A stretch of 54,092 nt of DNA, from positions 1 through 54,092 of the forward strand of contig JAAZFE010000045.1 of assembly GCA_012511885.1 (NCBI GenBank). Reading direction: 5' to 3'. Every line of letters starts with the position of its first letter. Within the stretch, counting starts at the first letter, position 1. Shown here piece after piece: positions 3,127 to 32,379 of the stretch. The position numbers and the translations under genes are program-made. The notes below the pieces were generated by a model. It was not told the DNA's origin. It did no database searches and was given only the letters and a program-made list of their open reading frames with translations. This stretch comes from Lentisphaerota bacterium (GTDB lineage: Bacteria > Verrucomicrobiota > Kiritimatiellia > CAIQIC01 > Lenti-01).

Positions 3127-4617
3127 TCACCGGTTCCAGATCCCCCGCGCTTCCTCGAACCGCCCCTGCTGTTCGAGGCAGACCGCCAGATTGTGCCGGG
3201 CCTTGGCGTTTTCCGGCGCGATCTCCACGGCCTCGCGCAAAAGCCGCTCGCTGGCCTCCCACGCCCCCGCCTTCCCCTCGAGAATGCCCCAGTTGATCCG
3301 GCCGCTCACCTGATGCGGATTCGCCTCGACCGCCCGCGCGTACCACTGCCGGGCGGCGGCCGCATCGCCGGCCTCCTCGCTCGCCAGCCCCAGCCAAACC
3401 GCCGCCGTGGCGCTCTGCGGATTGCGCTGCCAGGCCTTGGTCCATAGCCGCTCGCCGCCGGACCACTCGGCTTTTCCCGCCAGCACCAGCGCCGCGCAAA
3501 CCGCCGCCAGCCCCGCCAGCGCCCACCGCCGCCCCGGACGCGGCAAACGCGACACCCCCCACGCCACTGCCAGCGCCAGCCCCGGCGCCTGCGGATAAAG
3601 ATAGCGGTCGGCCACCGGATGCAGCAGCGGCAGCACGTTCGCCACCGGCAAAAAGAGAATCACCACCCACGCCAAACCCAGCGCCAGCCATGGCCGTGCG
3701 CGGCGTCCCCCCCACGCCGCCCCCACCCATCCCATTCCAAAAAGCAGGCCCGCCCAAAAACGCCACGATCCCGCCGACACCACCGGTGCGAACCGCGGCG
3801 TGACATTCAGCGGCCAGGGCCAAAGCAAACGACCCGCGCTCCGCGCCCCGAGCGTCGGCGCCGACCAAATCGTCTCCGGAAAACGCAGCGACTCCCCGTT
3901 CCACGCCCCCCCCACCGCTTGCAGCTCCGTCGGCAAAACCAGCCAAAGCGCGAAAAAACCGGCCGCCAAAACCCCGCATGCCGCCACCAGCGCGAACCGG
4001 CGGCCGCTCTCCCGGGGAAACGCCTCCGGCCAAAGCCCCATCAACACCGCCAGCAGCAGCGGCAGCACCAGCGCGGTCTCCTTGGCCAGCAACGCCAGCG
4101 CGCCCAATGCCAGCCCCCCCGCCAGCCCCAACACGAAACGCTCCCGCGCCCGGGCAAAGGCATGCAATCCGGCCAGCATCAGCAGCAGGCAGAGCACATC
4201 CGCCCGAAACCCCGGCGCGTGCACCGCCTCGACCCCCGCCGGGTGCAGCGCGAACAGCAGCCCCGCCGCCAGCGCCAGCCAGTCGTCCGCCCCCAGGCGT
4301 CGCAACAGCCCCACCCACAATCCCGCGCAGCCCAAATGCAACAGCAGACTCGTCACCCGCCAGCCCGCCGGCCGCAATCCGTACAGCGCGCGATCCGCAA
4401 AATACGTCGCCAGCACCGCCGGCCGCCGACCGTTCACCACCGACGGATCGTTCAGCGTCCGCCCCGTCACCACCTGCGTCCAGTTGGCGGAATCGGCCAG
4501 GTAATCGTTCTCGGCAATCATGCCGATGTCGTCATACAGAAACGGAAACTGCAGCCCCATCAGCCAGGGCGCGGCGACCACAGCCGCGAAGGCCAAACCC
4601 CTGCCCAACCGTTTCAT
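3127..4617 (-). CDS. Polytopic membrane protein with C-terminal TPR repeats; TMTC/PMT-like (GT-C type) putative glycosyltransferase
   Basis: 496-aa ORF with many hydrophobic segments. Acidic FLYDD motif sits just after the first TM. The C-terminal ~120 aa are TPR-like (WLGLASEEAGDAAAARQWYARAVEANP...). Confidence 0.8.
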   Translation of the reverse strand: MKRLGRGLAFAAVVAAPWLMGLQFPFLYDDIGMIAENDYLADSANWTQVVTGRTLNDPSVVNGRRPAVLATYFADRALYGLRPAGWRVTSLLLHLGCAGLWVGLLRRLGADDWLALAAGLLFALHPAGVEAVHAPGFRADVLCLLLMLAGLHAFARARERFVLGLAGGLALGALALLAKETALVLPLLLAVLMGLWPEAFPRESGRRFALVAACGVLAAGFFALWLVLPTELQAVGGAWNGESLRFPETIWSAPTLGARSAGRLLWPWPLNVTPRFAPVVSAGSWRFWAGLLFGMGWVGAAWGGRRARPWLALGLAWVVILFLPVANVLPLLHPVADRYLYPQAPGLALAVAWGVSRLPRPGRRWALAGLAAVCAALVLAGKAEWSGGERLWTKAWQRNPQSATAAVWLGLASEEAGDAAAARQWYARAVEANPHQVSGRINWGILEGKAGAWEASERLLREAVEIAPENAKARHNLAVCLEQQGRFEEARGIWNR

Positions 4618-4629
4618 CCGCCCCCTCTA

Positions 4630-4847
4630 ACCTGGATTATGCACGCGACAAGTCCGGCCCGGATGCGAGGCGTGCGGGGTGAAGCTGTATGGACAACCTG
4701 CGAACCCCGCAGAACAAAGCAGACGGGTTGGAATCGTCGCGCCTTGGGTCAACATGGATAAAAACCGAATTTTCATGATTATTTCCGCATCATGCTGCCC
4801 TGCAGCAAATAAAAATACTTTCATCCATGTTGATGAATAATCCAGGC
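4630..4847 (+). mobile_element. MITE-like element, copy 1 (218 bp, TA-flanked, 11-bp terminal inverted repeats)
   Basis: TA(4628-4629)-ACCTGGATTAT...ATAATCCAGGC-TA(4848-4849). Alignable along its length to copies at 23027, 23892 and 53825. Confidence 0.85.
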
Positions 4848-6958
4848 TAATCCTCCGCGCCGGAGTCCGCCGGCCAGCCCTCCGGCGGAGTCCAGATCCA
4901 CAACTGGAACACCTTTTCGTTGTCCTGAACCGCGAAACGGTTGCCGCGCCTGCTGTGGATCACCGTGGGATAGGCATAACGAATGGGCTCCATGAGCGGC
5001 ACCGCGCCGGGCATGGCAAAAGGATAAATCCCGCGGCCGTGCTCCGTGCTGGTCAGCCACAGCGCCCGGCGGCTGTTCCGCTCTTGCGCGCGGCGCACCA
5101 CCCGGAGAATGTCGCGCTGCGTCCCCGCGTTCCGGCTCTTCCAGAGCAGCTCCCCGTTCAGCACATCGTGCCCCTCCGCCAGCATCAGCGGCGTCCCCCA
5201 CAGCGCGGCATCCGCCACCACGAGATCGCCCGGCTCAAGCCGCGAGGCCACCGCGGCCAGCGTGGCCGTCAACCCGCGGTAATCCCCCACCCGCGCGGCC
5301 GCCCGGCTCAAACCGAACGACTGCCCCGCCGCCGGCGCCAACACCAGCAGAACCAGCCACCACCGCCCGCCCCCCCGCGCCCGGACAAGCTGCACGAGCC
5401 CCAGCACGGCGGCCGCCTGACCCAGCGCCAGCAGCGGCACCCAGAACACCACAATCCGCCGCAGCGCCCAGGGATAAACCGCCGCGATGCGCGGGTTCCA
5501 GAACAGGCTCAGGCAAACCATCCCCAATCCCAGCACCGCAATCCTGGCAGGCTTCATGGACGGGTCGGGCTTCCAGAAAAGCCAGGCCAGCCCCAGCCCC
5601 GCCCAGACCACCGTCAGTGGCCCCTGAAACGGAATGACCCGGCACAAATAGCTCAGCGACCGCCCCACCAGCGGGCACGCGGACACCGCCCGGAACAGGG
5701 CGGGCCGAAAAGCCGTCACCACGCTGGCCAGCCCCATCAACGCCAGAAGCAAACTCACCGCCGCGGCCGCCAGCAAAATCCACCGCACGCTCCGCGCGCG
5801 CCACTCCGCCGGCAGCGGCTGCCGGATAAAGGCCCAGCTCAGCGCCGCGCCGCCCACCACAATCATCATGATGACCCGCAGGGCCTGATCCTTGTCCTCC
5901 AGCCGCGTCACCGTGACCCCCGCGAAACTCAAATTCCAGGCGATAGCCAGCCCGATCGCCGCAAAGCACCAGCCGATTCTCTCCCGGCGGCCCGGCGCTC
6001 CCGCCCCCCCCTCCACGAAGGCCGCCACCACCAGGATGATGGTGGCCAGCGCCGCGACATTCAGGTGATTGATCGTGGCCGCGAACAGCGCCGCCATCGC
6101 GCCCAGCGGCATCCGGGCCCCGCGCCCGGCGGCCTGCGCGTAGAGCAGCGCGCCGCCCAGCAAAAGAAGCTGATAGAGCATTTCCGAGGTGGGCAGGCTT
6201 TGGTGATACCACCACAGCGGCGCCAGCAGCCAGCAGGCCAGCACCAGCCAGCGCCGCCACCCGCCCATCGCGATGCCATCGCCCAGCGCCAGCAGCGGGA
6301 TCAGCCCCCACAAGGCCAGAATGGCCGGCAGGCGCACCAGCAAACCCACCCCCCCCATGCGCAGAAACCACGCGCCGCAAAGCGACGTCAGATGGAAAAA
6401 GTACACCGGCAGCGATCCGTCCTCCGTCCGCACGGGCACGCCGGGCAGAATCTCCCGATAACGATCCTCCGCCGTCGAAAGCAGCACGCGCTCTTCCTCG
6501 GTCATGTCCGCATAGATCGAATCCACGCGCGCCTGCAGCCCGCCCTGCCGCGCCACGGCCACCGCGTTGTTCTGATAAATCCCCGGGTCCCACCCCCCCG
6601 CCAGCCACTCGGAGCGCGGCGGACTGCACAGCGGAATCGCCGTCAGCGCCCACACCAAAACCAGCGCCTGAGCCGCGCGCCCCGCAAGCGGCCGCCAGTC
6701 GGCTTCTCGTTTGAACGCCCACAACACCCCCCCCAGCACCACCAGGGCCCAGAGCGCCCAGTCCGCCGCCGGCGACCACGCCTCCAGCGACGCCAGCGCC
6801 ACCACCGCCAGGAGATTCAGCAGCACGCCCAGCGCCAGAACCCGCCCCATCCGCGCCAGCCACCCCCCGCCCCCCCCCGCCCAGACGCCGCCGGCCAGCG
6901 CCACCCGCGCCGTCAGCAAAAAACTGCCCGCGATCAGCTCCATGAGGGGATCCGCCAT
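4847..6958 (-). CDS. Large polytopic integral membrane protein (703 aa), possible GT-C-type glycosyltransferase
   Basis: Long ORF with more than 12 hydrophobic segments and a soluble C-terminal ~150 aa. It lies directly downstream of a Dpm1/GtrB-like GT2. No specific family recognised. Confidence 0.75.
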   Translation of the reverse strand: MADPLMELIAGSFLLTARVALAGGVWAGGGGGWLARMGRVLALGVLLNLLAVVALASLEAWSPAADWALWALVVLGGVLWAFKREADWRPLAGRAAQALVLVWALTAIPLCSPPRSEWLAGGWDPGIYQNNAVAVARQGGLQARVDSIYADMTEEERVLLSTAEDRYREILPGVPVRTEDGSLPVYFFHLTSLCGAWFLRMGGVGLLVRLPAILALWGLIPLLALGDGIAMGGWRRWLVLACWLLAPLWWYHQSLPTSEMLYQLLLLGGALLYAQAAGRGARMPLGAMAALFAATINHLNVAALATIILVVAAFVEGGAGAPGRRERIGWCFAAIGLAIAWNLSFAGVTVTRLEDKDQALRVIMMIVVGGAALSWAFIRQPLPAEWRARSVRWILLAAAAVSLLLALMGLASVVTAFRPALFRAVSACPLVGRSLSYLCRVIPFQGPLTVVWAGLGLAWLFWKPDPSMKPARIAVLGLGMVCLSLFWNPRIAAVYPWALRRIVVFWVPLLALGQAAAVLGLVQLVRARGGGRWWLVLLVLAPAAGQSFGLSRAAARVGDYRGLTATLAAVASRLEPGDLVVADAALWGTPLMLAEGHDVLNGELLWKSRNAGTQRDILRVVRRAQERNSRRALWLTSTEHGRGIYPFAMPGAVPLMEPIRYAYPTVIHSRRGNRFAVQDNEKVFQLWIWTPPEGWPADSGAED

Positions 6959-6967
6959 CCTCCCCGG

Positions 6968-7981
6968 TTACTGCGGGGAATCGCCCGGAGTATCGGCCGA
7001 CTGCTCTTTCGCGCGGGCCTGCTGATGACTCTCCAGTTCCAGGCAGCGCACCCGGTACAGGGTCTCATCGGCCGAGGCCCGGATGCGGTCCAGCATCTCC
7101 GCCATGATCCCCGCCAGAAACATCGCCATCCCCGCCCCCAAAAAGGCCGCCCCCGCGAACCCGGACCACTTGTGCGGCGAAAAACCGCCGGTGCGGATTT
7201 TGACGGACATCAGGAACAGCATGAACCCCAGCCCCACCACCCCCAGCGCCGCCGCGATCTTCGAGAAAAACTTCAGCGGCCGGTAGTCCCGATAGGTTTT
7301 GAGAATGATCGCCGCCGTGCGCCAGCCGTAATGGAAAAGATTGCTGGCCACCCGGCTCTTGCCGTGCTCGCGCACTCCGCGCACCACCACCGGAACCTCC
7401 TCGATGGACATCTCGGCAAAGGCCAGCGTCAGGAACACCTCATGCGTATAAGTGAAATCGCCCAGCAGGTTCAGCCGCAAATAGGCGTTCTTGGAATAGG
7501 CCCGGAAGCCGCAGGAGACATCCTTGAAATTCAGGTGGGTGATCGAGCTGACCCATCGCGCCATGAAATCGTTGCCCCAGCGCTTGGCCCACGGCATCTC
7601 CGGCACCAGTTCCGGATTCAAAAAACGCGACGCCGTGACAAATTCCGCCCGCCCCTCGAGAATCGGCGCGACCAGCTTGGGAATGTCATCCGGATTGAAC
7701 TGCCCGTCGGCATCCATGGTCACGACAATGTCCGCGCCCAGCTCCGTCGCCTTGGCCAGCCCGGTGCGGAAGGCCGCCCCCACCCCCCGGTTTTTCACAT
7801 GCGAGACCACAATGGCCCCCGCCTCCCGCGCCAGCTCCGCCGTGCGGTCCGACGAACCGTCATCCACCACCACCACCCGGATGGACGCCACCCCCGGCAG
7901 CTCCCCCGGCAGCGCCGCGAGCACGCGGCCAATGGATTTCTCCTCGTTAAGCGCCGGAATTTGAATGATCAGCTGTTTCAT
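6968..7981 (-). CDS. Family 2 glycosyltransferase, polyprenyl-phosphate sugar synthase-like (Dpm1/GtrB-type, C-terminal TM segments)
   Basis: MKQLIIQIPALNEEKSIG...VVVDDGSSDRT...TMDADGQ motifs, with two C-terminal hydrophobic helices. ATG at 7981. Confidence 0.9.
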   Translation of the reverse strand: MKQLIIQIPALNEEKSIGRVLAALPGELPGVASIRVVVVDDGSSDRTAELAREAGAIVVSHVKNRGVGAAFRTGLAKATELGADIVVTMDADGQFNPDDIPKLVAPILEGRAEFVTASRFLNPELVPEMPWAKRWGNDFMARWVSSITHLNFKDVSCGFRAYSKNAYLRLNLLGDFTYTHEVFLTLAFAEMSIEEVPVVVRGVREHGKSRVASNLFHYGWRTAAIILKTYRDYRPLKFFSKIAAALGVVGLGFMLFLMSVKIRTGGFSPHKWSGFAGAAFLGAGMAMFLAGIMAEMLDRIRASADETLYRVRCLELESHQQARAKEQSADTPGDSPQ

Positions 7982-8057: not shown

Positions 8058-10730
8058 TCAGGGGAGGGTCACCTGGATGTCCAGCGGCGCCGTCACCCCT
8101 GCCTCAAAAAGGGTGTTGGTCACGCTCCGCCCGTTCACCTCGAACACAAGCTCCTGGCCCGCCCCGCCCCCCCCCGCGGCAATGGAAAGTTGCGTTCCCT
8201 CCGCGTAGCGCCCCTTGTAAACACCGGCCTCCGGCCGGCCGTCAATCATCAGCGCCGGCAGCCCCCCGGCCGGGCGGACCGTCACTTCATGGAGGCTCTC
8301 CACTCGCAGCATGTCCGCCACCTTTCCGTACAGCAGTTCGGTCCGCTGGCGGAGATAGTCCTCGATGGTGGTGTAGTAGGCGACCTGCTTGGCCTTGAAT
8401 TCGTCCAGGGTCTGCTTGGTGGTGGCATCATCCTTTTGATTCAGCATGCCCTCCCACTCCAGATCCAGATAGGGCATGGCCCGGTCGCGATAAAAACGAA
8501 TCCGCCCGACCCAGCGCTCCACCGGGAAAACATGATTCAGATGCCGCTGCAACTCGGGGGCATAGACGGCCTGCACATACTCCTTGGAATGCAGCAGCGC
8601 CGCCACCGCGTTGCGCCGGTGCCCCGCCGGCGAGAACAGCAGCCGCTCGGGCGACATGTAAAACGAGCCGTCCAGATCCCAGGCCACCATGGTCCACTTG
8701 CGCGCCGGGTTTTTATAGTCCAACACAAACCACCCCTGCCCGCTGTCGCCCAGCCCCAGATAATGCAGCCCCGCGGCATACCGCGCGAGATAGGTCAAAT
8801 CCACAAATTCGGCCACTTGAGGCACCGTCACCGAGGATGTCGGCATCTCCTCGAGTTGGCCCCAGGTCCGGTTGAATTCATCCATTGTCCCCCACTTAAG
8901 CGGCGTGAGGGTCTTCTCCTTGACCACGTCCAGATCCAAGTGCCCGAACGTCTGCTCCAGATATTCCGGAGCATTGATGTCGTCCATGAGGTTGTAAAGA
9001 CCGTAGGGCCTCCCGTTCACATACATCATGGCGTGGCGGCGCCGGGGGGTCTGCACCCCGGCCGCCTCCATCACTTCGAACCCGATCGCGTTCTGCAAAT
9101 AGCCGCTGGACTGGGCCACGATGGAGGATGTTTTTTGCGGCCCCGGCGTGTCAAAAAACGGCTCCGGCCAGAACCGGCTTTCGTAACGGTTGCGGAACTT
9201 GAAACGGAAGTTTTGCTTGATCTGGAAGTTGCGCGTGGAGCGGCCCTGAATCCGCATGCCCGCCTTGCATGCCGCGGTGGGACACGCGGGATCAATGATC
9301 GTGATATGGCAGGGCTTCTCGGTCAGGACGCCCCGCAGGGTTTTGTTGGGCAGCAGGCCGAATTCCCCGCCGTCCAGATCGTCCTGCTCCATGATGACCG
9401 ACATGACCGGTAGCGGCCCAAGCTCCTCCAGCCAATAGGTGCGGTCCGTCGTGGCGCTCGGCCGGGCGCCGTCGCGGAACGATCGCGCCCGCACAAACGT
9501 GTTGCCGGTCAGCGCCAGCGGCCCGGCATAGGCCGCGCTCTTCCGGGTGGGCAGGCTGCCGTCGAGCGTGTAGCGCACGGTGTCGTTCGCGTCCGCGGGA
9601 GTCATAACGACCATCTGCCCCGCGGCCGCCCGCCCGCCCGGCAGACTCAGCTCCGGAGGCCGCGCGACCCCGGCCAGCGGCGTGTCCGCATCCGCGACCG
9701 CAAACATCCCCTTCCCCGCCGCGGTCCGCCGGTAGCTTTGCCCCGGCTGCAGCTCGGGAGTGGTCACATAGTCCAGCGGAACGCGCTGCGGCGTGAACAG
9801 GCCCACGAACTCGCCCGCCCGCCGAATCTTGAAGTTGAGATGGGCGTCCTGCTCGCCGCCGCCAAGCAGTTCGCCGCGCTTCATGACCACCACCCTGGCA
9901 ATGCGCACGGAACCCGCCAGCAGGCCGAATTCCAACTGCTGCGGACCGGCCTCCATCGGCCAATAGGCGTCCGTCCGCTCCGGATTGCGGATCTGGCAGA
10001 GGACGTATTCGGCCGATGGCTCCCGCTCCAGGATCACCGCCTGTCCGTTCACCAGGCAGGCCACCCGGCTGGTATGCGCCCCGACACCCCGCAACTCCAG
10101 CCAGAGCGCGACATCCTCCGGCTGCTCGAAGGTCAACGGGAAAACCAGCTTGCGGTTCGCGCTCAGCTTGTCCACGGACTCAAACCCAGCGCTGCTTTCG
10201 CACACCCGGCTCGCGATCAGCGGCATCTGCTCGCGGCCCATCGTCCAGAAGTTGGAACGGATCCCGTCCCGGGGCGTCAGGCTCGTCAAAGAATCCAGCG
10301 TGTCGCGCCCGTTGGCCCACAGCACCATGCTCGTTTTGGGCGGCAGCGTTATCGCCGGGAACACCCACTTGCGCGGCCGATGGGCCTTGTCGGTCAGGCT
10401 GCAACCATCCAGATTGAACGACCTCCCGGACTGGTTGTAAATCTCGATATAGTCATAGGCGTTGCCGCGGCAATCCACGGGGCCCGCCGGATTCGCCGTG
10501 CCCACCGCGGAAATGATCACGCTCGAAGTGATCGGGATGGCATTGGCGCTGCGCGCCGCGGCCATCGTGCGGTAGCTCCCGGCGCGGTTGACAATGCGGC
10601 CGCGCTTGGGGCGCAAGCGCAGGGCCGGCCCCCGCTCGCCCGACAGGAAAACCGCCGCGGCCAAAAACGCGCCCATCAGCACGGCCAGGCCGGCAAGGCG
10701 GCCAACCAACTTGGCGGATGACTTCGTCAA
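8058..10730 (-). CDS. CotH-family atypical kinase protein with N-terminal lamin-tail-like domain and a chitobiase/Fn3-like middle domain
   Basis: LTD-like YDYIEIYNQSGRSFNLDGCSLTD. CotH-like MRIQGRSTRNFQIKQNFRFKF and WDLDGSF. The proposed TTG start at 10730 overlaps the upstream TGA (TTGA) and gives a signal-anchor N-terminus. The longest ORF start is 10814. Confidence 0.85.
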   Translation of the reverse strand: MTKSSAKLVGRLAGLAVLMGAFLAAAVFLSGERGPALRLRPKRGRIVNRAGSYRTMAAARSANAIPITSSVIISAVGTANPAGPVDCRGNAYDYIEIYNQSGRSFNLDGCSLTDKAHRPRKWVFPAITLPPKTSMVLWANGRDTLDSLTSLTPRDGIRSNFWTMGREQMPLIASRVCESSAGFESVDKLSANRKLVFPLTFEQPEDVALWLELRGVGAHTSRVACLVNGQAVILEREPSAEYVLCQIRNPERTDAYWPMEAGPQQLEFGLLAGSVRIARVVVMKRGELLGGGEQDAHLNFKIRRAGEFVGLFTPQRVPLDYVTTPELQPGQSYRRTAAGKGMFAVADADTPLAGVARPPELSLPGGRAAAGQMVVMTPADANDTVRYTLDGSLPTRKSAAYAGPLALTGNTFVRARSFRDGARPSATTDRTYWLEELGPLPVMSVIMEQDDLDGGEFGLLPNKTLRGVLTEKPCHITIIDPACPTAACKAGMRIQGRSTRNFQIKQNFRFKFRNRYESRFWPEPFFDTPGPQKTSSIVAQSSGYLQNAIGFEVMEAAGVQTPRRRHAMMYVNGRPYGLYNLMDDINAPEYLEQTFGHLDLDVVKEKTLTPLKWGTMDEFNRTWGQLEEMPTSSVTVPQVAEFVDLTYLARYAAGLHYLGLGDSGQGWFVLDYKNPARKWTMVAWDLDGSFYMSPERLLFSPAGHRRNAVAALLHSKEYVQAVYAPELQRHLNHVFPVERWVGRIRFYRDRAMPYLDLEWEGMLNQKDDATTKQTLDEFKAKQVAYYTTIEDYLRQRTELLYGKVADMLRVESLHEVTVRPAGGLPALMIDGRPEAGVYKGRYAEGTQLSIAAGGGGAGQELVFEVNGRSVTNTLFEAGVTAPLDIQVTLP

Positions 10731-11422
10731 TGGGCCTCGGCGGGGCGGGAAAAGAAAACGTTGATCTTGTTGAGCGGGATGTCCGCGTGGAGATCCTTTT
10801 GCACTTCGCTCCACGCGCCCGACGCCAAATGCTTGAACACATACTGGATGCTCGTGGTGCCCGCCGACGAGGCAATGCTTTCCACCCGCAGACCGCGGAA
10901 ATGCCCCGCCAGACGCCGGTCCAGTTCGGCGCCGTGCTCACGGTAGGCCTCCTCGGCCAGGTTGACCATCAGCACGCCCTCGCGCCGCTTCAAGAGCAGG
11001 CCGCGCACCCGCGTCCAGTTGCGCAGCGCCAGCACCACAAAGGACGCCAGATACAGCAGCGCGATGAACAGGAAATTGAAGGTGGCAATCCCGATGGAAC
11101 CCGCGATCAGCAGCATCAAAAAACCGATCTCCTCCGGCTCCTTGATCGGCGTGCGAAAGCGCACAATGGACAGCGACCCCAGCAGCCCCAGCGAGAGCGG
11201 CAGCGACAACTGCACGCAGATGAACAGCAGCGTGATGGACGGCCCGATCAGCACGAACCCACGGTGGATCTGCGAGCCCGTGGCCTTGTTATCATAAAAA
11301 ATCACATACATCAGCTCCACGATCCACGCCGCCGCGATGGACAAAACCAGGCACAGCAGAAACCCCCGCAAATCCAACGTGAATCCCGCGCCGTCCGTAA
11401 TGTTCAACAATAGTTCTTTCAT
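10727..11422 (-). CDS. DUF4956-family membrane protein
   Basis: MKELLLNITDG... with LSLGLLGSLSIVRFRTPIKEPEEIGF, typical of DUF4956. ATG at 11422. Confidence 0.85.
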   Translation of the reverse strand: MKELLLNITDGAGFTLDLRGFLLCLVLSIAAAWIVELMYVIFYDNKATGSQIHRGFVLIGPSITLLFICVQLSLPLSLGLLGSLSIVRFRTPIKEPEEIGFLMLLIAGSIGIATFNFLFIALLYLASFVVLALRNWTRVRGLLLKRREGVLMVNLAEEAYREHGAELDRRLAGHFRGLRVESIASSAGTTSIQYVFKHLASGAWSEVQKDLHADIPLNKINVFFSRPAEAH

Positions 11423-11438
11423 GCGTTGTCCTCCGCGC

Positions 11439-12134
11439 TCATTCCAGCCGCATGCATTCGGCATACTTCGAAAAGGCGCTCTTTTTTATCACATACCGGT
11501 TCAAAACGTGGAGCGGCGGCGGCAACACGCGGGCCGCGAATCCCTTGACCTCCAGCACACTGTAGCGCGCCGTGCCCGGGCGGTTGCCCCGCGGGCGCTC
11601 GCTGCTCCAGTTGGACAAGCAGATCTCCGAGTCCAGCGCGATCCGATAACCCGTGGCCATGTCCACAAAACGGCTGCGCAAATAGCTGATCACGCAAACC
11701 GGCGCGAACGCAACCAGATCGGGCACGGCCGGCGGCGCCAGCCAGTCGGTCAGACACAGGTCCCGGACCGCCGCGGCGGGTTCCCGGTGCAGCGCCGCGA
11801 CATCCAGCGCCATGGGCACGCGGGTCTTCCACGACCGGGCGCCCTCCTTGCTTTTGACCTCGAGGTAGGCCTTGTCCGAAAACTCCTTTTCCAGCTCGTC
11901 GGTGTACCAGCGCAGGCGAACCTTCTGCTTCAGGTATTCGCCCTGCTCCGACTGGCGCAGGGCGTTCATCCGCAGGGAATCGTAGTAGAGGCTGTGCACC
12001 CGGTTCTCGCCGTAGGCGGGATCCGGCGCGCACAGATGATTCAGCCAGGCCAAGGCCTGGGCCGTATAAATCTTCGGCAGGACAAACTTGGCCTCGTGCC
12101 GGGCCGGCGCGGCCGGATGACTCAAAGCGCTCAT
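11439..12134 (-). CDS. VTC-domain (polyphosphate polymerase-like, CYTH/triphosphate-tunnel superfamily) protein
   Basis: HEAKFVLP...RVHSLYYDS...KVRLRWY...YLEVKSK pattern of alternating basic/acidic beta strands. The ATG overlaps the upstream gene stop (ATGA at 12131-12134). Confidence 0.85.
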   Translation of the reverse strand: MSALSHPAAPARHEAKFVLPKIYTAQALAWLNHLCAPDPAYGENRVHSLYYDSLRMNALRQSEQGEYLKQKVRLRWYTDELEKEFSDKAYLEVKSKEGARSWKTRVPMALDVAALHREPAAAVRDLCLTDWLAPPAVPDLVAFAPVCVISYLRSRFVDMATGYRIALDSEICLSNWSSERPRGNRPGTARYSVLEVKGFAARVLPPPLHVLNRYVIKKSAFSKYAECMRLE

Positions 12135-13315
12135 CCGGCAAGCAACCGCTCATAGATGCCCCGCAGGCGCTGGGCGATGGCCTCCGGCGTGTGTTCCGCC
12201 GCCACCAGCAGCCCCGCCCGGCCCATCTGCTGCGCCAGCGGAAAATCCTGCAGCAGCCGCGCGAGCTTGCCGGCCAGGTCCTCGAAGTTGAACGGCTCGA
12301 AGAACAGGCCGTTTCGCTCGTCAAAAACAATGTCCAAAGGGCCGCCCACGCGACTGGCCACCACCGCCGTGCCGCAGGCCATGGCCTCGAGCAGAACCAC
12401 CCCGAGGCTCTCGACCCACACGCGGTCGTCAAAGCGCGATGGCAGGGCAAACACCGCTGCCCGGGCATACTCCTCCATCAGGGCCGCCTGCACTTTGGGC
12501 CCGGGAAACTCCGCGGGAACATCCAGCTCCGCGGCCAGAGCCTGCCAGGCATCCCGCTCCGGCCCCTCCCCCACAAACACCAGCTTGAAGTCGAGACCGC
12601 GCTGCTTGAGCAGCCCGCCCGCGCGGATCAAAAGATCGCCGCCCTTCCAGGCAATCATGCGGCCCACAAACAGGATGCGCCCGGGCTCCTTGGGCGGCAG
12701 CGACGGGGGCACATCCCAGGCCAGCGGCATCGGCACAATCTCGGAACGCATGCCGCCATAAAGCTCGTCCAGCCGGCCGCGCGTGAACGACGAATTGCAC
12801 AAATGAATGTCCGCCCGCCGCAAAACCGGCCCGAAAAGGCGTCGCAGAAGAGGGAAGCGCCGCGCCAGCGACAGCTCCGTCTGGTGATAATGATACACAA
12901 TCCGCGCGCCGCGGAACGGCAGCGCGATCAACCCCATCGGCACCGGCCAATGGACATGCACAACGTCATATTTCTGCGCCCGCAGTTTGCGCGCTTTGAG
13001 CCATCCCCCCAGCAAAAACAGAGGCGCCTGGGCATAGCGCAGGGGCTGGCGGCGCATCTTTTCATAGATGGCCACCTCGTGCGCCAGATTCTCGATCCTC
13101 TTCGGGGAATAGCGGAAACGCCACACCGGCAGATCCCCGTAATGGCCGTCGCCGAGGCCGTGCAGGGCCGAAGTCAGCACATGCACATCCATCCCCGCGC
13201 GGCGCTGGGCCTGCACCAGGCGCGTCAACCAGGGGGTCACGGTCGAGGTTTCGTCGGTCGCGAACGACGTGGCAATGTGCAGGACCTTCAACCGGCGCTC
13301 TTCTCCATCAGTCAT
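12131..13315 (-). CDS. Family 1 (GT4-like, GT-B fold) glycosyltransferase
   Basis: LKVLHIATSF...; C-terminal ESLGVVLLEAMACGTAVVASRVGG motif. Confidence 0.9.
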   Translation of the reverse strand: MTDGEERRLKVLHIATSFATDETSTVTPWLTRLVQAQRRAGMDVHVLTSALHGLGDGHYGDLPVWRFRYSPKRIENLAHEVAIYEKMRRQPLRYAQAPLFLLGGWLKARKLRAQKYDVVHVHWPVPMGLIALPFRGARIVYHYHQTELSLARRFPLLRRLFGPVLRRADIHLCNSSFTRGRLDELYGGMRSEIVPMPLAWDVPPSLPPKEPGRILFVGRMIAWKGGDLLIRAGGLLKQRGLDFKLVFVGEGPERDAWQALAAELDVPAEFPGPKVQAALMEEYARAAVFALPSRFDDRVWVESLGVVLLEAMACGTAVVASRVGGPLDIVFDERNGLFFEPFNFEDLAGKLARLLQDFPLAQQMGRAGLLVAAEHTPEAIAQRLRGIYERLLAG

Positions 13316-13458: not shown

Positions 13459-14175
13459 ATGAAGAAAATTGCTTTGGTAACGGGCGGCGGCAGCGGAATC
13501 GGACAGGCTCTGGCTCAACGGCTGGCCGCGGAAGGCCACTTTGTTTTCCTCGCCGGGCGCAACGCGCAAAAACTGGAAACCACCTGCGCGTTGATCGGGC
13601 AGGCCGGCGGCCGGGCCGAGGCGCTCACCGCGGACCTCGCCGACGAAGCGAGCATCCGCCAACTGGCCGCCCAAATCAAGGCGCGGACACCAACCCTGGA
13701 TGTGCTGGTCCACAGCGCCGGCTGCTTCCGGATGGGAACGCTGGAGTCGGCGCACATCGCCGACTTGGACGACCTCTATCAGGTCAACCTGCGCGCGCCT
13801 TATCTGCTCACCCAGCTGCTGTACGCCCTCCTGCTCAAGGCGGCGGGGCAGATCGTGTTCATCAATTCGACCGCCATCCTGAATCCCGGCGCGAACTGGG
13901 GCGCCTATGCCGCCACCAAAGCCGCCCTGCGGGCCATGGCCGACAGCCTGCGCGCGGAAATCAACCCGCGCGGCGTGCGTGTTCTCACCGTCATTCCCGG
14001 ACGAACCGACACCCCCATGCAGGAGCAGGTCCACCAGCTGGAAAACCGCCCCTATCAAGCCGACCGCCTCATGCGCCCCGACGATGTCGCGCTCATGACC
14101 ATGCAGGCCCTGAACCTGCCCCCAAGCGCGGAAGTCACTGAAATCGTCGTCCGCCCTGCCCAAAAACTGAGCTAG
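13459..14175 (+). CDS. Short-chain dehydrogenase/reductase (classical SDR)
   Basis: TGGGSGIG cofactor motif, NSTA, and YAATKAAL catalytic YxxxK. Confidence 0.92.
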   Translation: MKKIALVTGGGSGIGQALAQRLAAEGHFVFLAGRNAQKLETTCALIGQAGGRAEALTADLADEASIRQLAAQIKARTPTLDVLVHSAGCFRMGTLESAHIADLDDLYQVNLRAPYLLTQLLYALLLKAAGQIVFINSTAILNPGANWGAYAATKAALRAMADSLRAEINPRGVRVLTVIPGRTDTPMQEQVHQLENRPYQADRLMRPDDVALMTMQALNLPPSAEVTEIVVRPAQKLS

Positions 14176-14955: not shown

Positions 14956-14978
14956 GGCGCTTGGAGCTCCCCCGAAAC

Positions 14979-15080
14979 TTTCCACGCCATGAAAAAAATA
15001 GCAACCGGTTTTCCACGCCATGGAAACTTTTTTGCAGACTCTTCCACGCCATGGAAAATAGTTTTCCACGCCGTGGAAAA
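14979..15080. promoter_or_regulatory. Array of four palindromic TTCCACG-N-C(A/G)TGGAA motifs (candidate operator or promoter-associated sites)
   Basis: Motif centres at 14987, 15018, 15049 and 15071 (spacing 31, 31, 22 bp). The copy at 15062-15080 is a perfect 19-bp palindrome TTTTCCACGCCGTGGAAAA. Confidence 0.55.
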
Positions 15081-15089
15081 ATACGCCCG

Positions 15090-15240
15090 AAAAAACACCC
15101 CAAAAGCACCCATTCCGTCCCTCCCCCCAAAAACCCAAAAAATACCCCAAAAATCGTCAAAAACACCGATTTTCACCCGTTTTTGACCCGTTTTTGACCC
15201 AAAAACACCCTTTTTTGACCCGTTTTGCCCGAAAACTTTT
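15090..15240. promoter_or_regulatory. Phased A/T-tract block (predicted curved DNA) in divergent intergenic region
   Basis: A or T runs start at 15090,15102,15129,15137,15149,15159,15170,15180,15191,15201,15211,15223,15232, mostly 9-12 bp apart. Confidence 0.5.
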
Positions 15241-15255
15241 CCACGGCGTGGAAAA
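15237..15255. promoter_or_regulatory. Fifth palindromic motif copy (perfect 19-bp palindrome TTTTCCACGGCGTGGAAAA)
   Basis: Exact inverted symmetry around G15246. It lies ~55-75 bp upstream of the candidate start codons of the GT gene on the + strand. Confidence 0.55.
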
Positions 15256-15267
15256 TCCGGAGCCCAC

Positions 15268-15295
15268 GTCAACTTCCACCTGTCAACTTCCACCT
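15268..15295 (+). repeat. Tandem direct repeat 2 x GTCAACTTCCACCT
   Basis: Two identical adjacent 14-mers. Each contains the TTCCAC half-site of the nearby palindrome. Confidence 0.6.
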
Positions 15296-28335: not shown

Positions 28336-29280
28336 TTATGCGAAACTCAACAATTGAAACGGGCACGTTGCCAGCAGGGGCTCCAGATTGATCCGTGCCG
28401 GCGTCCAAAGCGATCGGCGTGCCCAAATCTCTTCTGGCGAAGTCAATGACGTCACACAGAATGGCTCCATTCCCTCTTTGCCAATGGATGCGTAAAAATC
28501 GTCGAATTTGAATCTCCACCATCCGGGACTGGGGGGCTCAAATTCCACCCAAATTGCAGGAATTTGATAAGCTTCCGCAACAATCAATCCGTGCAACGAG
28601 GAAGACACGATCATATCGCAACTGGTAATGTCATCAATGACGTCACGCCAATCCCCATACCCGTTCACTGCAATCTTTCTTGCCTCTGACCAGGCGGCTA
28701 TTCGTTTCAAGGCAGGAGCGTTGCGCTCGTGGTCGGCATAATTCGGAATCACTCCGATTCGAGCACGGGACCGGGGTGCTGGGGTGTAAAAGCGAGGTAA
28801 AAGCAGTGCCGGATCACCGTAGACGGCGGGACATTCGATTCCACGGTCCAATAACCATTGCCGGGTCAATGGCCCTCGCACCGCCAGGATTTTCCGTGGC
28901 TTGGAAATTAAGTCCCAACCGGGCTCGTTGTTGATCAATCCGGCGCCCCAAACCACCGTTGTCTCCAAGGGGAAAAAGGTGAGCGTACTCCCGATACACA
29001 GATAGTTCTCCAGCCCCATCTGACGAAAAAGCCATGTGTTGGGACATCGCAGCACGTGTTTTCCCGTGGCTGCCTCGAAAAAGTATAAGTTAATATCGTC
29101 GCCCCAATTCCGCCGTTTCCGTGTCCCAAACGTCCACATTAAGATGGACTTGGATGTCCGGAATCGATTCATCCAAAGGCACGCCAACCCTCGAGGCAAA
29201 CCGCGCACCTCGAATTCCACATGATGTCCCGCTCTCCAGACTGCGCGCCCCCATGGCCTTTTCTGCATCCACTGTTTCAT
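28336..29280 (-). CDS. Polysaccharide pyruvyl transferase family protein
   Basis: NWGDDINLYFF...CIGSTL...LAVRGPLTRQWLLDRGIECPAVYGDPALLLP...IVSSSLHGLIVAEAYQIPAIWV. The start is placed at ATG 29280 to avoid overlap; the longest ORF extends to 29301. Confidence 0.85.
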   Translation of the reverse strand: MKQWMQKRPWGRAVWRAGHHVEFEVRGLPRGLACLWMNRFRTSKSILMWTFGTRKRRNWGDDINLYFFEAATGKHVLRCPNTWLFRQMGLENYLCIGSTLTFFPLETTVVWGAGLINNEPGWDLISKPRKILAVRGPLTRQWLLDRGIECPAVYGDPALLLPRFYTPAPRSRARIGVIPNYADHERNAPALKRIAAWSEARKIAVNGYGDWRDVIDDITSCDMIVSSSLHGLIVAEAYQIPAIWVEFEPPSPGWWRFKFDDFYASIGKEGMEPFCVTSLTSPEEIWARRSLWTPARINLEPLLATCPFQLLSFA

Positions 29281-29285
29281 GTGTT

Positions 29286-29906
29286 TCAAAAAGGCATGCA
29301 TATGCCCCCTGCTTCAAGCGCAAATGGCTTCTGCAACATCCGGACGATTCCCGCCACCAGGAACAGCCAGCCCGTCCAGTTCCAAAGCACATAGGTCAGC
29401 GAAGCCGCCGCCCAGGCGCCGGCCGCGACGATGCCAACGAACCATAGATCGTTCTGTTGTAGTTGGATGGTCCGCACCAGCATCAATTTCGCGCGGCCCA
29501 GCGAATAATAGATGCGGTAGGACAGCCAGGAGGTCAGCCCCAGCGCCAGCCTCACCAGAATCATGCGCAGCAAACCATGCTGCCGGCCCGGCATCATTCC
29601 CGGCAGCCGCCGCAACAGGAATTTCAACCCGCCCAGCGAAGACAAAATCGCGATGAATGTGAGCGTCGTGGTGGCCAGGGTCAGGCGGCCATACAGGTCC
29701 TTCGGCAAATACTGGGTCAACAGCCGCATCCGCAGCGGATTCAGCAAAAAATACAATCCCATGTAGCCGAACGATGGCAGGACAAAGAGCAACAGACGGC
29801 CAAAAGGGCGGCCGCCCGATTGGATTGGATGCGGTTCATTCATTCTGTGCAGCAAGCGTTGATTGGCCCAAAACCTAGCATTCCGCCTCTTTGGAAACGA
29901 GTCCAA
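29286..29906 (-). CDS. Membrane protein resembling only the N-terminal ~5 TM segments of a MOP/Wzx flippase (possibly a truncated gene)
   Basis: LLLFVLPSFGYMGLYFLLNPLRMRLLTQYLPKDLYGRLTLATTTLTFIAILSSLGGLKFLLRRLP resembles flippase N-termini, but the ORF is 206 aa versus ~450-510 aa for full-length proteins. Confidence 0.5.
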   Translation of the reverse strand: MDSFPKRRNARFWANQRLLHRMNEPHPIQSGGRPFGRLLLFVLPSFGYMGLYFLLNPLRMRLLTQYLPKDLYGRLTLATTTLTFIAILSSLGGLKFLLRRLPGMMPGRQHGLLRMILVRLALGLTSWLSYRIYYSLGRAKLMLVRTIQLQQNDLWFVGIVAAGAWAAASLTYVLWNWTGWLFLVAGIVRMLQKPFALEAGGICMPF

Positions 29907-29964: not shown

Positions 29965-32379
29965 GTGAGCAGCCCTGACCCATATCCTTCGTCAAACGCC
30001 CCCTCGCCGGAACGGCCAGCCCGGCGCGCCCATCTTCCATGGCTGCTCCCCTTGCTGCTGACCGCCGCTTTCCTGATCCATGTGTGGCGTCACTATGAAA
30101 TCCGCGCCTTCTCCGACCCCCTCAACTGGCTGCGCTTCGCCCGCGATTTTGCAACGCAAATCCACACCACCAAATACGCCCTCGGTTTCGCCCTGTTCCT
30201 CAGAGGCGCACTGGCCCTGACGGGGCCCTATTGCATTTTTCTGATCAATCTGCCCATTTTGCTGGGCACCTACCTTCTGGCGGCGGCGCTGGTTCAACGC
30301 TCGTTCACGCCCCGGGAACGCGTGCCGCACTGGCAGGTGGCCAGCCTGACCCTGACACTGTTCTTCCTCTTTGACCGCTGGCTGATCGTGTACCTGATGA
30401 ACCCCTATCGCGACCCGCTTTCGTTCCTGCTCTCGCTGGCGGCCGCGCTCTTCCTGGTCGTCCACGCTCAAACCGGCGGTGCGCGGCCCGCGCGGGCCGC
30501 CCTGGCCGGTCTGCTGCTCGGCCTGTCCTGTTCCGTCCGCGAAACCTCCGTCCTGTTCCTGCCACCGTTTGCCCTCTATGCCTTTTGGTCGTGGCGGGCC
30601 GACAGACGCATCCATTTCTGGCGTGACGGCATCTTTTTTTCGATCGGCCTGCTCGCGGGCATCGCGCCCCTGATGTGGCAGGGCTGGCTCCGCGCCGGCC
30701 AGCCCCTCCTGCCTGCCCAATCCACGGTGGACAACAAGCTCGTCCCCGGCATGCACTTCACCCGGCAGTGCTTCCAAGCCACGGGCAAGGATGCCTGGCT
30801 CTATCTGAAACGCGTGGCCCCCCCCGGTGTGTTCATCGTGCTCTGGGCGGCTGTCGCAGGCCTTTGGCGGCGCAACCGCGTTGTTGCGGGCCTGCTGATC
30901 CCCGCCGCGCTTATCCATGCCGTGTTTTACTGCTTCTACTGGACCTTTGTGGCCCGCTACTTCTACTCGGCCGTCACCTTTGCCGTGCCGGCGGCCGCGT
31001 GGGGCCTGCTGACCGCGTTGCGCTGGTGCGAAACCCGTCTGCCTTCCCGCCACGGCGGCAAAATCGCCAGCGCGGCCATCGGCGCCCTGGTTCTGCTGAC
31101 CGCCCTCCCCATGCTCATCGCCCGTCCGGCGGCCCCCCGCTTTCAAATCCCCCAGGCGCGGAAGTTCGCCCGGGATTTCGGCGCTCATTTGCCGAAAGGC
31201 GGCACGGTGTTCGCCCGCCGCAACCTGTGCGAAATGCTCGAATGGTTCATCCCCGCCAACTCCTTCCCGGCCATGGCGCTCATCCCCGGCGATGTCCCCG
31301 CGGAACCGGCCCTGCAAGAGGCCCTGGCGCCTTATTTGGAAAGCTCCGCCCCCCTCCACCTCGTGGCCATGCATACCCCCCCCGCGTGGGAATTGGATGC
31401 CGCCATGCTTCAGCGACTGACTGGCCTCGACGAAATCCGCTCCTTTTCCTCGCACGCCTACAACCTCTATCGCATGACCGGAGTCAACCGCTTCCAGCTC
31501 TTCGCCGTCCGGCGTTATCAACCCGATCCCCCCATCTTGCCCGGCATGCGTGAAGCCCGCGCCAACTGGGCCCGCTATGATTTTGCCATCAATGCCGTTC
31601 CCAACGCAGCGGAGCTCCTCTCGGGCGACACCGCCCCCCCCACCGCGGCGCGCCTCGCGCCGGGCGTTTTGAGCTCCGCCCGGGCCTCCCTGCCCGGCCC
31701 GGTGGCCGCCGGAGAAACCCTGCATGTGGAAATCCGTCTGCGCAGCATCCAACAGGAACGGGGCGTCAGGGACATCACCGCCACGCTGGGCGCCTCCTCC
31801 CGGCAGCTTCGACTCCGGCAGAACCGGCTGTGGCAGACCTTCACACTTTCAGCCGAAGGACTGCGGGAAAACCCCGAACTCGAGCTGAGCGCCGCCGCGC
31901 CGTTCGAGTTTCACCGCGTGGATTGGAGCCTGCCTCAGCCGACGGATCACCTGGTAATTGATGTCGGCTCCGATGGCGACTTTGCCCATCTTCTCGACGG
32001 CTGGCATGGGCGCGAAACCGCCCCCGGCAACGCGACCGTTCGCTGGAGCGGGCCGTCAGCCGCCGTATCGTGGCTCTGCGCCGGCCCGGGCCAACCCGGA
32101 CAACTCGTGCTGCGCCATTACGCGGCCAGCCGCCCCCCGCTGGATGCCGCGCCCCGGCTGTGGTGCAACGATCTCGAATTGCGGCCCGCTGTCGCCCCCG
32201 ACGGCGATACCGGCTACGAGATCATCACCGCCACCATCCCGCCCGATTGCCTCCGGCCCCGCAACATCATTCGCTTCGAGATCCCCGGCTGGCAGCCCGG
32301 GGCTCATGACCCGCGCCAACTCGGCCTCTACGTGGATTGGATCGAACTCTCTGCGGGTCCGCCCTCGGACGGGAATTAG
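29965..32379 (+). CDS. Large polytopic membrane protein (804 aa) with ~330-aa extracytoplasmic C-terminal domain; GT-C-like by inference
   Basis: GTG start. About 11-13 hydrophobic segments in the first ~430 aa. The C-terminus ends with DPRQLGLYVDWIEL, a pattern seen at the end of many bacterial PMT/ArnT-like proteins. Confidence 0.8.
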   Translation: MSSPDPYPSSNAPSPERPARRAHLPWLLPLLLTAAFLIHVWRHYEIRAFSDPLNWLRFARDFATQIHTTKYALGFALFLRGALALTGPYCIFLINLPILLGTYLLAAALVQRSFTPRERVPHWQVASLTLTLFFLFDRWLIVYLMNPYRDPLSFLLSLAAALFLVVHAQTGGARPARAALAGLLLGLSCSVRETSVLFLPPFALYAFWSWRADRRIHFWRDGIFFSIGLLAGIAPLMWQGWLRAGQPLLPAQSTVDNKLVPGMHFTRQCFQATGKDAWLYLKRVAPPGVFIVLWAAVAGLWRRNRVVAGLLIPAALIHAVFYCFYWTFVARYFYSAVTFAVPAAAWGLLTALRWCETRLPSRHGGKIASAAIGALVLLTALPMLIARPAAPRFQIPQARKFARDFGAHLPKGGTVFARRNLCEMLEWFIPANSFPAMALIPGDVPAEPALQEALAPYLESSAPLHLVAMHTPPAWELDAAMLQRLTGLDEIRSFSSHAYNLYRMTGVNRFQLFAVRRYQPDPPILPGMREARANWARYDFAINAVPNAAELLSGDTAPPTAARLAPGVLSSARASLPGPVAAGETLHVEIRLRSIQQERGVRDITATLGASSRQLRLRQNRLWQTFTLSAEGLRENPELELSAAAPFEFHRVDWSLPQPTDHLVIDVGSDGDFAHLLDGWHGRETAPGNATVRWSGPSAAVSWLCAGPGQPGQLVLRHYAASRPPLDAAPRLWCNDLELRPAVAPDGDTGYEIITATIPPDCLRPRNIIRFEIPGWQPGAHDPRQLGLYVDWIELSAGPPSDGN

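Follow-up and report, generated by a model that had tools for sequence, protein, structure and literature searches.

In the 54,092-nt stretch of contig JAAZFE010000045.1 from a Lentisphaerota bacterium (assembly GCA_012511885.1), which is called the window throughout this text, three consecutive genes of the minus strand encode a VTC-domain protein, a membrane protein of the DUF4956 family and a large protein with a kinase domain of the CotH family. The three genes lie within a surface-glycan operon and are found together across many bacterial phyla, which gives interest to a problem that is still open: How could bacteria drive phosphorylation outside the cytoplasm, without ATP? Equally open are the roles of the thousands of CotH 'kinases' that are not associated with spores and those of bacterial proteins with a VTC domain. 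By uniting in one coupled unit what is likely a polyphosphate polymerase with its own membrane protein and an exported kinase, the triad leads to a concrete and testable proposal, namely that these genes may form a self-contained module for envelope phosphorylation; we assign to the full chain of steps in this proposal a probability of about 0.4.

A Coupled Gene Triad and Its Distribution

The gene for the VTC-domain protein lies at 11439-12134 and that for the DUF4956 protein at 10727-11422, both encoding 231 residues, while the CotH gene occupies 8058-10730 and encodes 890 residues when read from a TTG codon. All three show the pattern GC1>GC2<<GC3 that characterizes real genes of this sequence, with its 60-69% GC, a pattern which is missing in the overlapping open reading frames (ORFs) of the plus strand, and identical contigs of anaerobic-digester metagenomes carry public gene calls with the same starts for each of them. 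An earlier note on this DNA, made from the sequence alone, had placed three consecutive minus-strand genes at these positions and described their tight packing; both statements hold, the latter by direct reading of the junctions. The stop codon of the upstream glycosyltransferase gene, of the GT4 family, overlaps the VTC start in an ATGA at 12131-12134; the TGA of VTC is separated from the DUF4956 ATG at 11422 by a 16-nt spacer on the minus strand (11423-11438, gcgcGGAGGAcaacgc) containing a GGAGGA Shine-Dalgarno sequence; and the TGA of DUF4956 (10727-10729) overlaps the TTG of CotH (10728-10730) in a TTGA. The longest ORFs reach 11464 for DUF4956 and 10814 for CotH, but the corresponding ATG and GTG codons were rejected in favor of the starts at 11422 and 10730, because homologue lengths, the aligned M1, the Shine-Dalgarno sequence and the public gene calls agree on the latter. 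With one strand and touching or overlapping codons, the run formed by GT4, VTC, DUF4956 and CotH has the sequence hallmarks of a translationally coupled operon. Its transcription unit can begin at 13315, because the gene upstream of GT4, a short-chain dehydrogenase/reductase (SDR) gene on the plus strand (13459-14175), is divergent; a terminator scan returned only weak terminator-like matches, each of them inside called genes.

The distribution of the triad was surveyed from two sides. On the VTC side, one genome per species and one strict peptide pattern gave 147 relatives, of which 80 loci were kept, so that counts are over 81 with the window included; iterative profiles for the three families were then searched over all six-frame ORFs. 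In 79 of these 81 loci the next gene after VTC, and on its strand, is DUF4956, and a CotH kinase domain is found at no more than 10 kb from VTC in 72 of them: downstream on the same strand in 60, divergent and upstream in nine (mostly from Chloroflexota), and upstream on the same strand in the remaining three. Nine loci are devoid of CotH, five of which lie at a contig edge, three belong to Dehalococcoidia and do have room for the gene, and one (L019) has neither DUF4956 nor CotH. The taxa represented include Verrucomicrobiota sensu lato (Kiritimatiellia and Victivallales), Planctomycetota, Acidobacteriota, Spirochaetota, Desulfobacterota, Chloroflexota, Gammaproteobacteria (Arenicella), Bifidobacteriaceae and Auribacterota, to which the literature adds Bacillota; Desulfofustis glycolicus DSM 9705 is a cultured carrier. 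On the DUF4956 side, a metagenome scan yielded at least 552 confirmed relatives, and among 80 loci examined VTC adjoins DUF4956 in 73; in all but one of the seven others the upstream sequence is shorter than 500 nt, which leaves 73 of 74 testable loci. From the two surveys it follows that VTC and DUF4956 constitute a near-obligate core, of which CotH is the usual third partner. The earlier note had made its proposal depend on whether the three genes stay together beyond this genome, and they do so in at least nine phyla.

Two further observations bear upon the behavior of the triad in evolution. The pairwise identities of its three proteins co-vary (r 0.82-0.86, where permutations reached at most 0.13), as would be expected of genes that travel together; such mirror-tree correlations arise in any case between genes of shared genomes and say nothing of physical contact. 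Moreover, the triad lies between rpsA and tyrS in one genome of Kiritimatiellia and among unrelated genes elsewhere, and since it is found also in such housekeeping or unrelated contexts, it moves as a unit. In other genomes it stands beside GT87, DUF2142, Wzx and many GT4 genes, with a glycan context in loci L083, L090 and L091, and the theme that recurs among its neighborhoods is the extracytoplasmic assembly of glycoconjugates. Both core families are large: DUF4956 comprises at least 6,883 clusters at 90% identity and VTC 7,239 clusters at 50% identity (E<=1e-10), the best 150 of which are all single-domain proteins of 217-300 residues. Fusions between DUF4956 and CotH were absent from 160 loci searched for them.

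Some loci show variations of the arrangement. In Desulfobulbales, two tandem DUF4956-like ORFs are located between VTC and CotH (L042 9217-10798, L044 10679-12261 and L047 10679-12295), while L075 (10679-17173) has the order VTC, CotH, DUF4956, CotH and L091 (10613-11470) has DUF4956 and CotH separated by an extra gene, whose 285-residue product belongs to no known family. On a long-read contig of Acidobacteriota (L088 9001-11885), DUF4956 is split into two short ORFs and CotH has only 343 residues, which points to a decaying module or else to a faulty assembly. Pairs of VTC and DUF4956 without CotH (L048 9926-15549 and L173 5152-11340, as well as L055, L076 and L170) have among their neighbors a 1,374-residue discoidin/beta-helix protein, a discoidin protein, a Wzx flippase, a sugar aminotransferase, an AglB/STT3 oligosaccharyltransferase and a MacB-HlyD exporter.

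The association of the three families has been described before, a point which the earlier note did not mention. VTC, a 'tubulin/FtsZ' protein and CotH were tabulated in NELoc-2 of C. perfringens (Lepp et al. 2010, PMC2879425), and cotH, a 'poly-phosphate polymerase', DUF4956 and DUF4832 were listed as accessory genes adjoining pelDEADAFG in streptococci, clostridia and bifidobacteria (Whitfield et al. 2020, PMC7112168). More recently, the three proteins of S. intermedius (SIR_1594-1592) have been modelled and each of their genes deleted (mBio 2025, PMC12345266). The authors of this study stated that the triad was not found outside pel loci; instead, it is widespread outside them, as documented by the 72 of 81 loci above. 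The pel-associated triad resembles that of the window in having the same three families adjacent in a surface-polysaccharide locus, with a CotH that is predicted to be secreted and has its catalytic residues, a VTC protein that likewise has its own, and a membrane protein combining transmembrane helices with an apparently ACT-like domain. It differs in gene order, since VTC is followed here by DUF4956 and then CotH whereas the SIR_1594-1592 numbering suggests that CotH comes first there, in its genomic setting, as the window has no pel genes and probably derives from a PVC-type (Planctomycetes-Verrucomicrobia-Chlamydiae) Gram-negative host, and in the CotH protein, which carries here a lamin-tail domain (LTD), a module similar to carbohydrate-binding modules (CBM) and a CHB_HEX_C domain rather than FN3. 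What is new in the present analysis is the non-pel setting, the probably diderm host, the gene order and the LTD/CBM type of CotH. The statement of the earlier note that the function of the triad had not been established experimentally stands: among the open-access papers and preprints on DUF4956, CotH-like kinases, bacterial VTC proteins and secreted or glycan kinases, we found no functional study that establishes it.

Predicted Properties of the Three Proteins

The domains that the earlier note had recognized, namely VTC, DUF4956, CotH and the lamin-tail and chitobiase-C-like domains, all scored above the curated Pfam cut-offs, while none of the three proteins is covered by an NCBIfam model. 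The VTC protein matches Pfam VTC (PF09359) with E 4e-21 and 76 bits, versus a cut-off of 23, along residues 12-229 of 231. When a family alignment of 23 sequences with 21 invariant columns was used as a profile against the PDB, it matched the catalytic domain of yeast Vtc4 (3g3q) at E 9e-10, with the RLRWY, LEVK and FSK motifs in register. Counting along this profile alignment, with an offset of 185, R73, R75 and E195 correspond to R264, R266 and E426 of Vtc4, and S222 and K223 to S457 and K458. The triple substitution of R264, R266 and E426 has been used to inactivate yeast VTC, the mutant being reported as catalytically impaired, and their equivalents are kept by 72 of 72 triad homologues, which also keep E14, K16, K71, E92, K94, K103, R153, R155, D168, K197, S222 and K223. 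The 231-residue protein lacks both an SPX domain and an N-terminal signal sequence, and it is not markedly hydrophobic in any segment, for only the hydropathy window at 131-150 just attains the threshold of 1.6. Judging from these features, we consider it a soluble, stand-alone triphosphate-tunnel domain of Vtc4 type with every catalytic residue intact, and predict that it functions as a cytoplasmic polyphosphate polymerase; such an activity appears more likely than the complete mechanism presented below.

The protein encoded by the second gene matches DUF4956 (PF16316) with E 8e-11 and 42.4 bits, against a cut-off of 30.6. It is the most conserved member of the triad, with homologues that are 40-66% identical. 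In its AlphaFold model (pLDDT 81), five helices (18-43, 52-70, 74-90, 96-113 and 117-143) precede a C-terminus with beta-alpha-beta-beta-alpha-beta topology (149-224), which weakly resembles the alpha/beta domain of ACT and MgtC proteins. The loop R88-F-R90-T-P-x-K94-E-P-E97-E98 is conserved in 71 of 71 sequences, and the Q71-S-x-P-L-S-L-G-L-L-G motif, part of a polar Q-x-S-x-P-L-S-L-G-L-L-G helix, is also invariant. We infer that the soluble domain faces the cytoplasm, because the sequence past the last helix is strongly basic, and that the R88 loop does the same, following the positive-inside rule; the predicted external loops have only about three residues. The layout of an N-terminal helical membrane domain followed by a domain that may be ACT-like recalls MgtC/SapB proteins, but this likeness needs to be qualified. 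The best Foldseek match of the model, the C-terminal domain of MgtC (2lqj), is weak (E 1.5e-3, TM-score 0.59 on the target) and covers the soluble domain only, for which many generic ferredoxin-like folds score similarly, and none of 47 family members matches Pfam MgtC at E<=1, indicating no link in sequence.

The product of the third gene is a multidomain protein, of which the AlphaFold model has pLDDT 80.7 and pTM 0.73. It begins with a hydrophobic helix, either a signal anchor or a signal peptide (residues 6-33, 10632-10715; helix 6-30 in the model), and continues with a lamin-tail domain (residues 69-143, 10302-10526; Pfam LTD PF00932, E 2e-9) whose profile matches structures of the lamin A/C tail. 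An all-beta sandwich without a Pfam call follows at residues ~190-300 (9831-10163, pLDDT 77-88); it is probably this part of the model that accounts for matches of the whole-protein Foldseek query to the carbohydrate-binding modules CBM6, CBM35 and CBM36 (E 1e-4 to 1e-3). Next comes a chitobiase/hexosaminidase C-terminal-like domain (residues 364-428, 9447-9641; CHB_HEX_C_1 PF13290 E 9e-14, Fn3_assoc PF13287 E 2e-11), the profile of which matches the same module in 8ayr and 6q63. The kinase domain covers residues 493-798 (8337-9254) and is followed by a last beta-sandwich (residues 813-888, 8067-8294), seen as model strands with pLDDT ~90 and lacking a Pfam call.

The kinase domain matches Pfam CotH (PF08757) with E 3e-15 and 57.2 bits, versus a cut-off of 23.8. 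Foldseek aligns the model with B. cereus CotH (5jd9) at E 1e-12 and a TM-score of 0.73 on the target, with 14% identity in the structural alignment, and a profile of 16 relatives reaches the same structure at E 1.4e-15; a PDB search with the single sequence of the CotH half gave no match, so that the profile was needed. D662 (codon 8745-8747) and D685 (codon 8676-8678) are invariant in the alignment of relatives and lie 23 residues apart, exactly as D228 and D251 of B. subtilis CotH, and PMC7821199 reports the D228Q and D251A forms of the latter as inactive. Among CotH partners in triads, D662 is kept in 67 of 69 and D685 in 68 of 69. The protein differs from its Bacillus relative in size and architecture, since the 5jd9 chain has 359 residues and matches the kinase domain only whereas the window protein is anchored at the N-terminus and carries four extra beta-sandwich modules, as well as in its location in the glycan operon of a probably non-sporulating organism. 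Bacillus CotH works in the cytoplasm of the mother cell, using ATP to phosphorylate CotB and CotG. A role in the spore coat does not suit the window protein, given its glycan-gene neighbors, its relatives in Kiritimatiellia and Verrucomicrobia and its export anchor. The model thus describes a membrane-anchored protein having a kinase fold like that of Bacillus CotH, with both catalytic aspartates and modules of carbohydrate-binding type.

Regarding its export, an N-terminal hydrophobic helix is present in 63 of 72 partner CotHs, with a mean flank charge of +2.8 ahead of it and -0.1 past it; the N-terminal flank is the more positive in 62 of 67, corresponding to an N-in, C-out orientation. More distant relatives carry classical signal peptides, a lipobox or a sorting tail of the type IX secretion system (T9SS). 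That CotH is an active exported kinase is likelier than the mechanism in its entirety. In the clade of the window protein, the charge rule alone is ambiguous because of a very basic linker past the helix, a low-confidence segment beginning with RLRPKRGRIVNRAGSYRTMAAAR (residues 33-66, 10533-10634) and common to the closest relatives (P0177-P0179), which could serve as a polyanion-binding tether. Directly past the anchor helix, 33 of 67 triad CotHs, for instance in L008, L013, L016, L038 and L069, present the motif G-x-x-[LIVW]-E (10632-10650 in the window), and in 52 of 67 an acidic residue is the first charged one past the helix. Such conservation goes beyond what a signal peptide generically needs and may reflect a contact with DUF4956.

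The Proposed Mechanism and Its Alternatives

How could a polymerase of the cytoplasm and a kinase on the other side of the membrane work together? In the mechanism that we favor, VTC would dock on an oligomer of DUF4956 and polymerize polyphosphate from ATP, and the growing chain would be threaded through DUF4956 to the periplasmic face of the membrane. The anchored CotH, having no ATP on its side, would then use the emerging phosphoanhydride chain as a donor of phosphoryl or polyphosphoryl groups to modify the glycan, or glycoprotein, assembled by the surrounding locus, thereby adding negative charge to the envelope. VTC and DUF4956 would together act as the bacterial equivalent of the eukaryotic VTC synthase-translocase, though constructed around another membrane subunit. 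The yeast VTC complex couples polyphosphate synthesis to membrane translocation, and the comparison with the eukaryotic structures (3g3q, 7ytj and 8i6v) extends to the homologous tunnel, with its conserved residues, and to the constant pairing of the catalytic domain with a small multi-pass membrane protein. It has limits too, since the window VTC has neither SPX nor the fused Vtc1-type domain with three transmembrane helices, its partner is a separate, unrelated-looking protein with five helices and an ACT-like domain, and the putative delivery would be to the periplasm, not to a vacuole. For CotH, a working analogy is offered by the kinases of the animal secretory pathway, such as the xylose kinase Fam20B, the mannose kinase POMK and Fam20C, atypical enzymes of the kinase fold whose substrates are glycans or secreted proteins outside the cytosol (PMC5865150, PMC5142810, PMC7948968). 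These enzymes, in contrast, rely upon lumenal ATP imported by transporters, and their likeness to CotH is that of the general kinase fold.

If the mechanism were true, bacteria would have a second route to polyphosphate, independent of polyphosphate kinase (PPK), a counterpart of the eukaryotic VTC machine and a novel means by which capsules, exopolysaccharides such as Pel or S-layer glycoproteins acquire charge, which would affect biofilms and the interaction with hosts. The wider claim that bacteria of many phyla own a polyphosphate synthase-translocase, made of a Vtc4-like tunnel and DUF4956, which powers ATP-independent phosphorylation or polyphosphorylation of surface glycans or proteins by extracytoplasmic CotH, we regard as doubtful, and advance it only tentatively. 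Even if the mechanism is wrong, the triad would count among the more widespread uncharacterized envelope modules, with at least 7,000 VTC and at least 6,800 DUF4956 clusters.

Several facts weigh against the mechanism. To our knowledge, no kinase with a protein-kinase fold uses polyphosphate. The membrane domain of DUF4956 has no detectable similarity to Vtc1 and found no analogue in the PDB by Foldseek, although 7ytj and 8i6v were among the structures searched, and the sole structural match of the protein is with the ACT-like C-terminal domain of MgtC, which is a regulator. No fusion of VTC with DUF4956 occurs in the 160 loci or among the 150 best VTC representatives; the association is also incomplete, for there are secreted CotH proteins without VTC or DUF4956 within 7 kb and, mostly in Dehalococcoidia, pairs of VTC and DUF4956 without CotH. 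In the window CotH, moreover, the charges flanking the anchor helix give no clear orientation, with +4 past it and +3 ahead of it. No biochemical data on bacterial VTC, DUF4956 or secreted CotH proteins were found among the open-access papers and preprints searched. In S. intermedius the knockouts had only mild effects: deletion of the VTC gene had no phenotype in aggregation, while the deletions of the DUF4956-type gene and of CotH each roughly halved aggregation in artificial sputum medium, yet the former raised Pel and the latter lowered it (PMC12345266); such opposite effects fit poorly with a strictly linear pathway.

Among the alternatives, the one that survives best holds that polyphosphate stays inside the cell. 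DUF4956 would then be an MgtC-like tether or sensor, its ACT-like domain binding a metabolite and recruiting VTC, and local polyphosphate, or the status of ATP and phosphate, would regulate glycan synthesis or export; CotH would be linked functionally while receiving its donor from elsewhere, or be mainly a glycan-binding surface protein. This explanation, which we judge unlikely but deserving serious attention, accommodates the ACT-like domain, the best structural match being with MgtC and ACT domains, and the opposite Pel phenotypes better than the export of polyphosphate does. The latter have a regulatory look, and the authors of the S. intermedius study themselves consider that polyphosphate may stay cytoplasmic and link all three proteins to phosphate metabolism (PMC12345266). 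The lack of Vtc1-like similarity in the membrane part of DUF4956 points in the same direction. It leaves unexplained, however, why an exported CotH with intact aspartates is the partner in ~90% of loci and why the pair is frequently coupled to it in translation; besides, the invariant Q-x-S helix and R-F-R-T-P loop of DUF4956 would seem more appropriate for a conduit or docking site than for a tether.

In another alternative, the VTC protein would be a different triphosphate-tunnel enzyme, for example a tri- or polyphosphatase, a nucleotide cyclase or a producer of short oligophosphates or another phospho-donor, in which case the module would handle some small phospho-compound and not long-chain polyphosphate. 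The CYTH/TTM superfamily does include triphosphatases and cyclases (PMC9582702, PMC3440374), the polymerase activity of bacterial VTC proteins is deduced from sequence, and the window protein is without the SPX regulator. Nonetheless, its match to Pfam VTC, the retention of the Vtc4 polymerization residues, including the FSK motif, and the fact that its best PDB matches are all Vtc4, with Vtc2 weaker, make this alternative improbable.

A third possibility concerns the side of the membrane on which CotH acts. In the clade of the window, the helix could lie N-out, C-in, leaving CotH in the cytoplasm to phosphorylate, with ATP, cytoplasmic or membrane targets in the manner of Bacillus CotH, which could include the glycan machinery or even the pair of VTC and DUF4956. 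The more basic flank past the helix of the window protein would agree with such an orientation, as would the adenine nucleotide bound in a solved CotH structure (5jda, with Mg2+/AMP). We find it quite improbable in the face of the N-in bias of 62 out of 67 partners, the cleavable signal peptides, lipobox or T9SS tail of its relatives and the LTD, CHB_HEX_C and CBM-like modules, which are typical of exported proteins; a streptococcal homologue, furthermore, has been reported in the secretome. Finally, that three functionally unrelated genes are neighbors by chance in a crowded glycan locus has nothing in its favor beyond general gene density and is refuted by the surveys, in which the triad remains united across nine or more phyla, also outside glycan contexts, while its members diverge in concert, so that its probability is negligible.

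The Surrounding Glycan Locus and Its Host

The run that contains the triad has the order GT4, VTC, DUF4956, CotH, GT2, a membrane protein of 703 residues and a protein with tetratricopeptide repeats (TPR), and an independent contig (L087) keeps this order through the TPR gene. All its genes are on the minus strand. The GT4 gene (12131-13315; Pfam Glycos_transf_1 E 8e-35, and Glyco_transf_4) opens the run. Beyond CotH, the GT2 gene (6968-7981; 337 residues from the ATG at 7981) encodes a protein like the synthases of polyprenyl-phosphate sugars, with Pfam Glycos_transf_2 at E 5e-26, best NCBIfam matches to AglJ, PpgS and dolichyl-P hexose transferase that are all sub-threshold, and hydrophobic segments at residues 182-200, 238-264 and 274-297 in a scan for transmembrane segments. 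Nine nt past it lies the gene of the polytopic membrane protein (4847-6958), with about nine hydrophobic segments; this protein has no match in Pfam, NCBIfam or the PDB, and an attempt to assign it to a GT-C family was without success, but it is possibly a periplasmic GT-C-like transferase using a lipid-linked sugar. After a gap of 229 nt, the TPR gene (3127-4617; Pfam TPR families) is the last in the same orientation.

That the triad resides in a glycan locus, as the earlier note maintained, is borne out by a Pfam scan of 37 window proteins, which found several GT4 and GT2 glycosyltransferases, a PIG-L deacetylase, a nucleotidyl-transferase, a sugar C-methyltransferase, a hexapeptide acyltransferase, a pyruvyl transferase, a MatE/Wzx-like flippase and RgpF. 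The dominance of surface-glycan genes is broken only by nusA-infB-truB, and the polysaccharide pyruvyl transferase at 28336-29301, which represents another route to negative charge, and the rhamnan-synthesis protein RgpF at 47004-48938 therefore define two glycan regions split by these genes. The possibility of a pel locus in disguise was rejected, since none of the 37 proteins belongs to the PelA, PelD, PelE or PelG families and the GT4 flanking the triad is PelF-like only generically.

As to the host, the nearest relatives of its VTC protein, 41-48% identical, belong to metagenome-assembled genomes of Kiritimatiellia and Verrucomicrobia, and the window encodes an outer-membrane beta-barrel protein; for these reasons, a diderm, non-sporulating organism of PVC type may reasonably be deduced.

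Two minor observations pertain to the glycan regions. In or beside them, four large ORFs (4847-6958, 29965-32379, 38336-40588 and 42148-44871), encoding 703-907 residues, have no significant match in Pfam or NCBIfam; those of 703 and 804 residues, which are polytopic or weakly similar to DUF6541/LA_3751, may be unclassified transferases of GT-C type. The intergenic sequence at 14973-15255, between divergent PIG-L and GT4 genes, contains five copies of the near-perfect palindrome TTTTCCACG(C/G)C(G/A)TGGAAAA with spacings of 31, 31, 22 and 175 nt. The same intergenic region has A/C-rich direct repeats at 15158-15230 and two tandem copies of GTCAACTTCCACCT at 15268-15295. A search with the palindrome motif returned nine strand-matches at five sites, where 0.06 would be expected, and the rest of the window has no match; the array looks like a set of operators through which a dimeric regulator might control the glycan locus.

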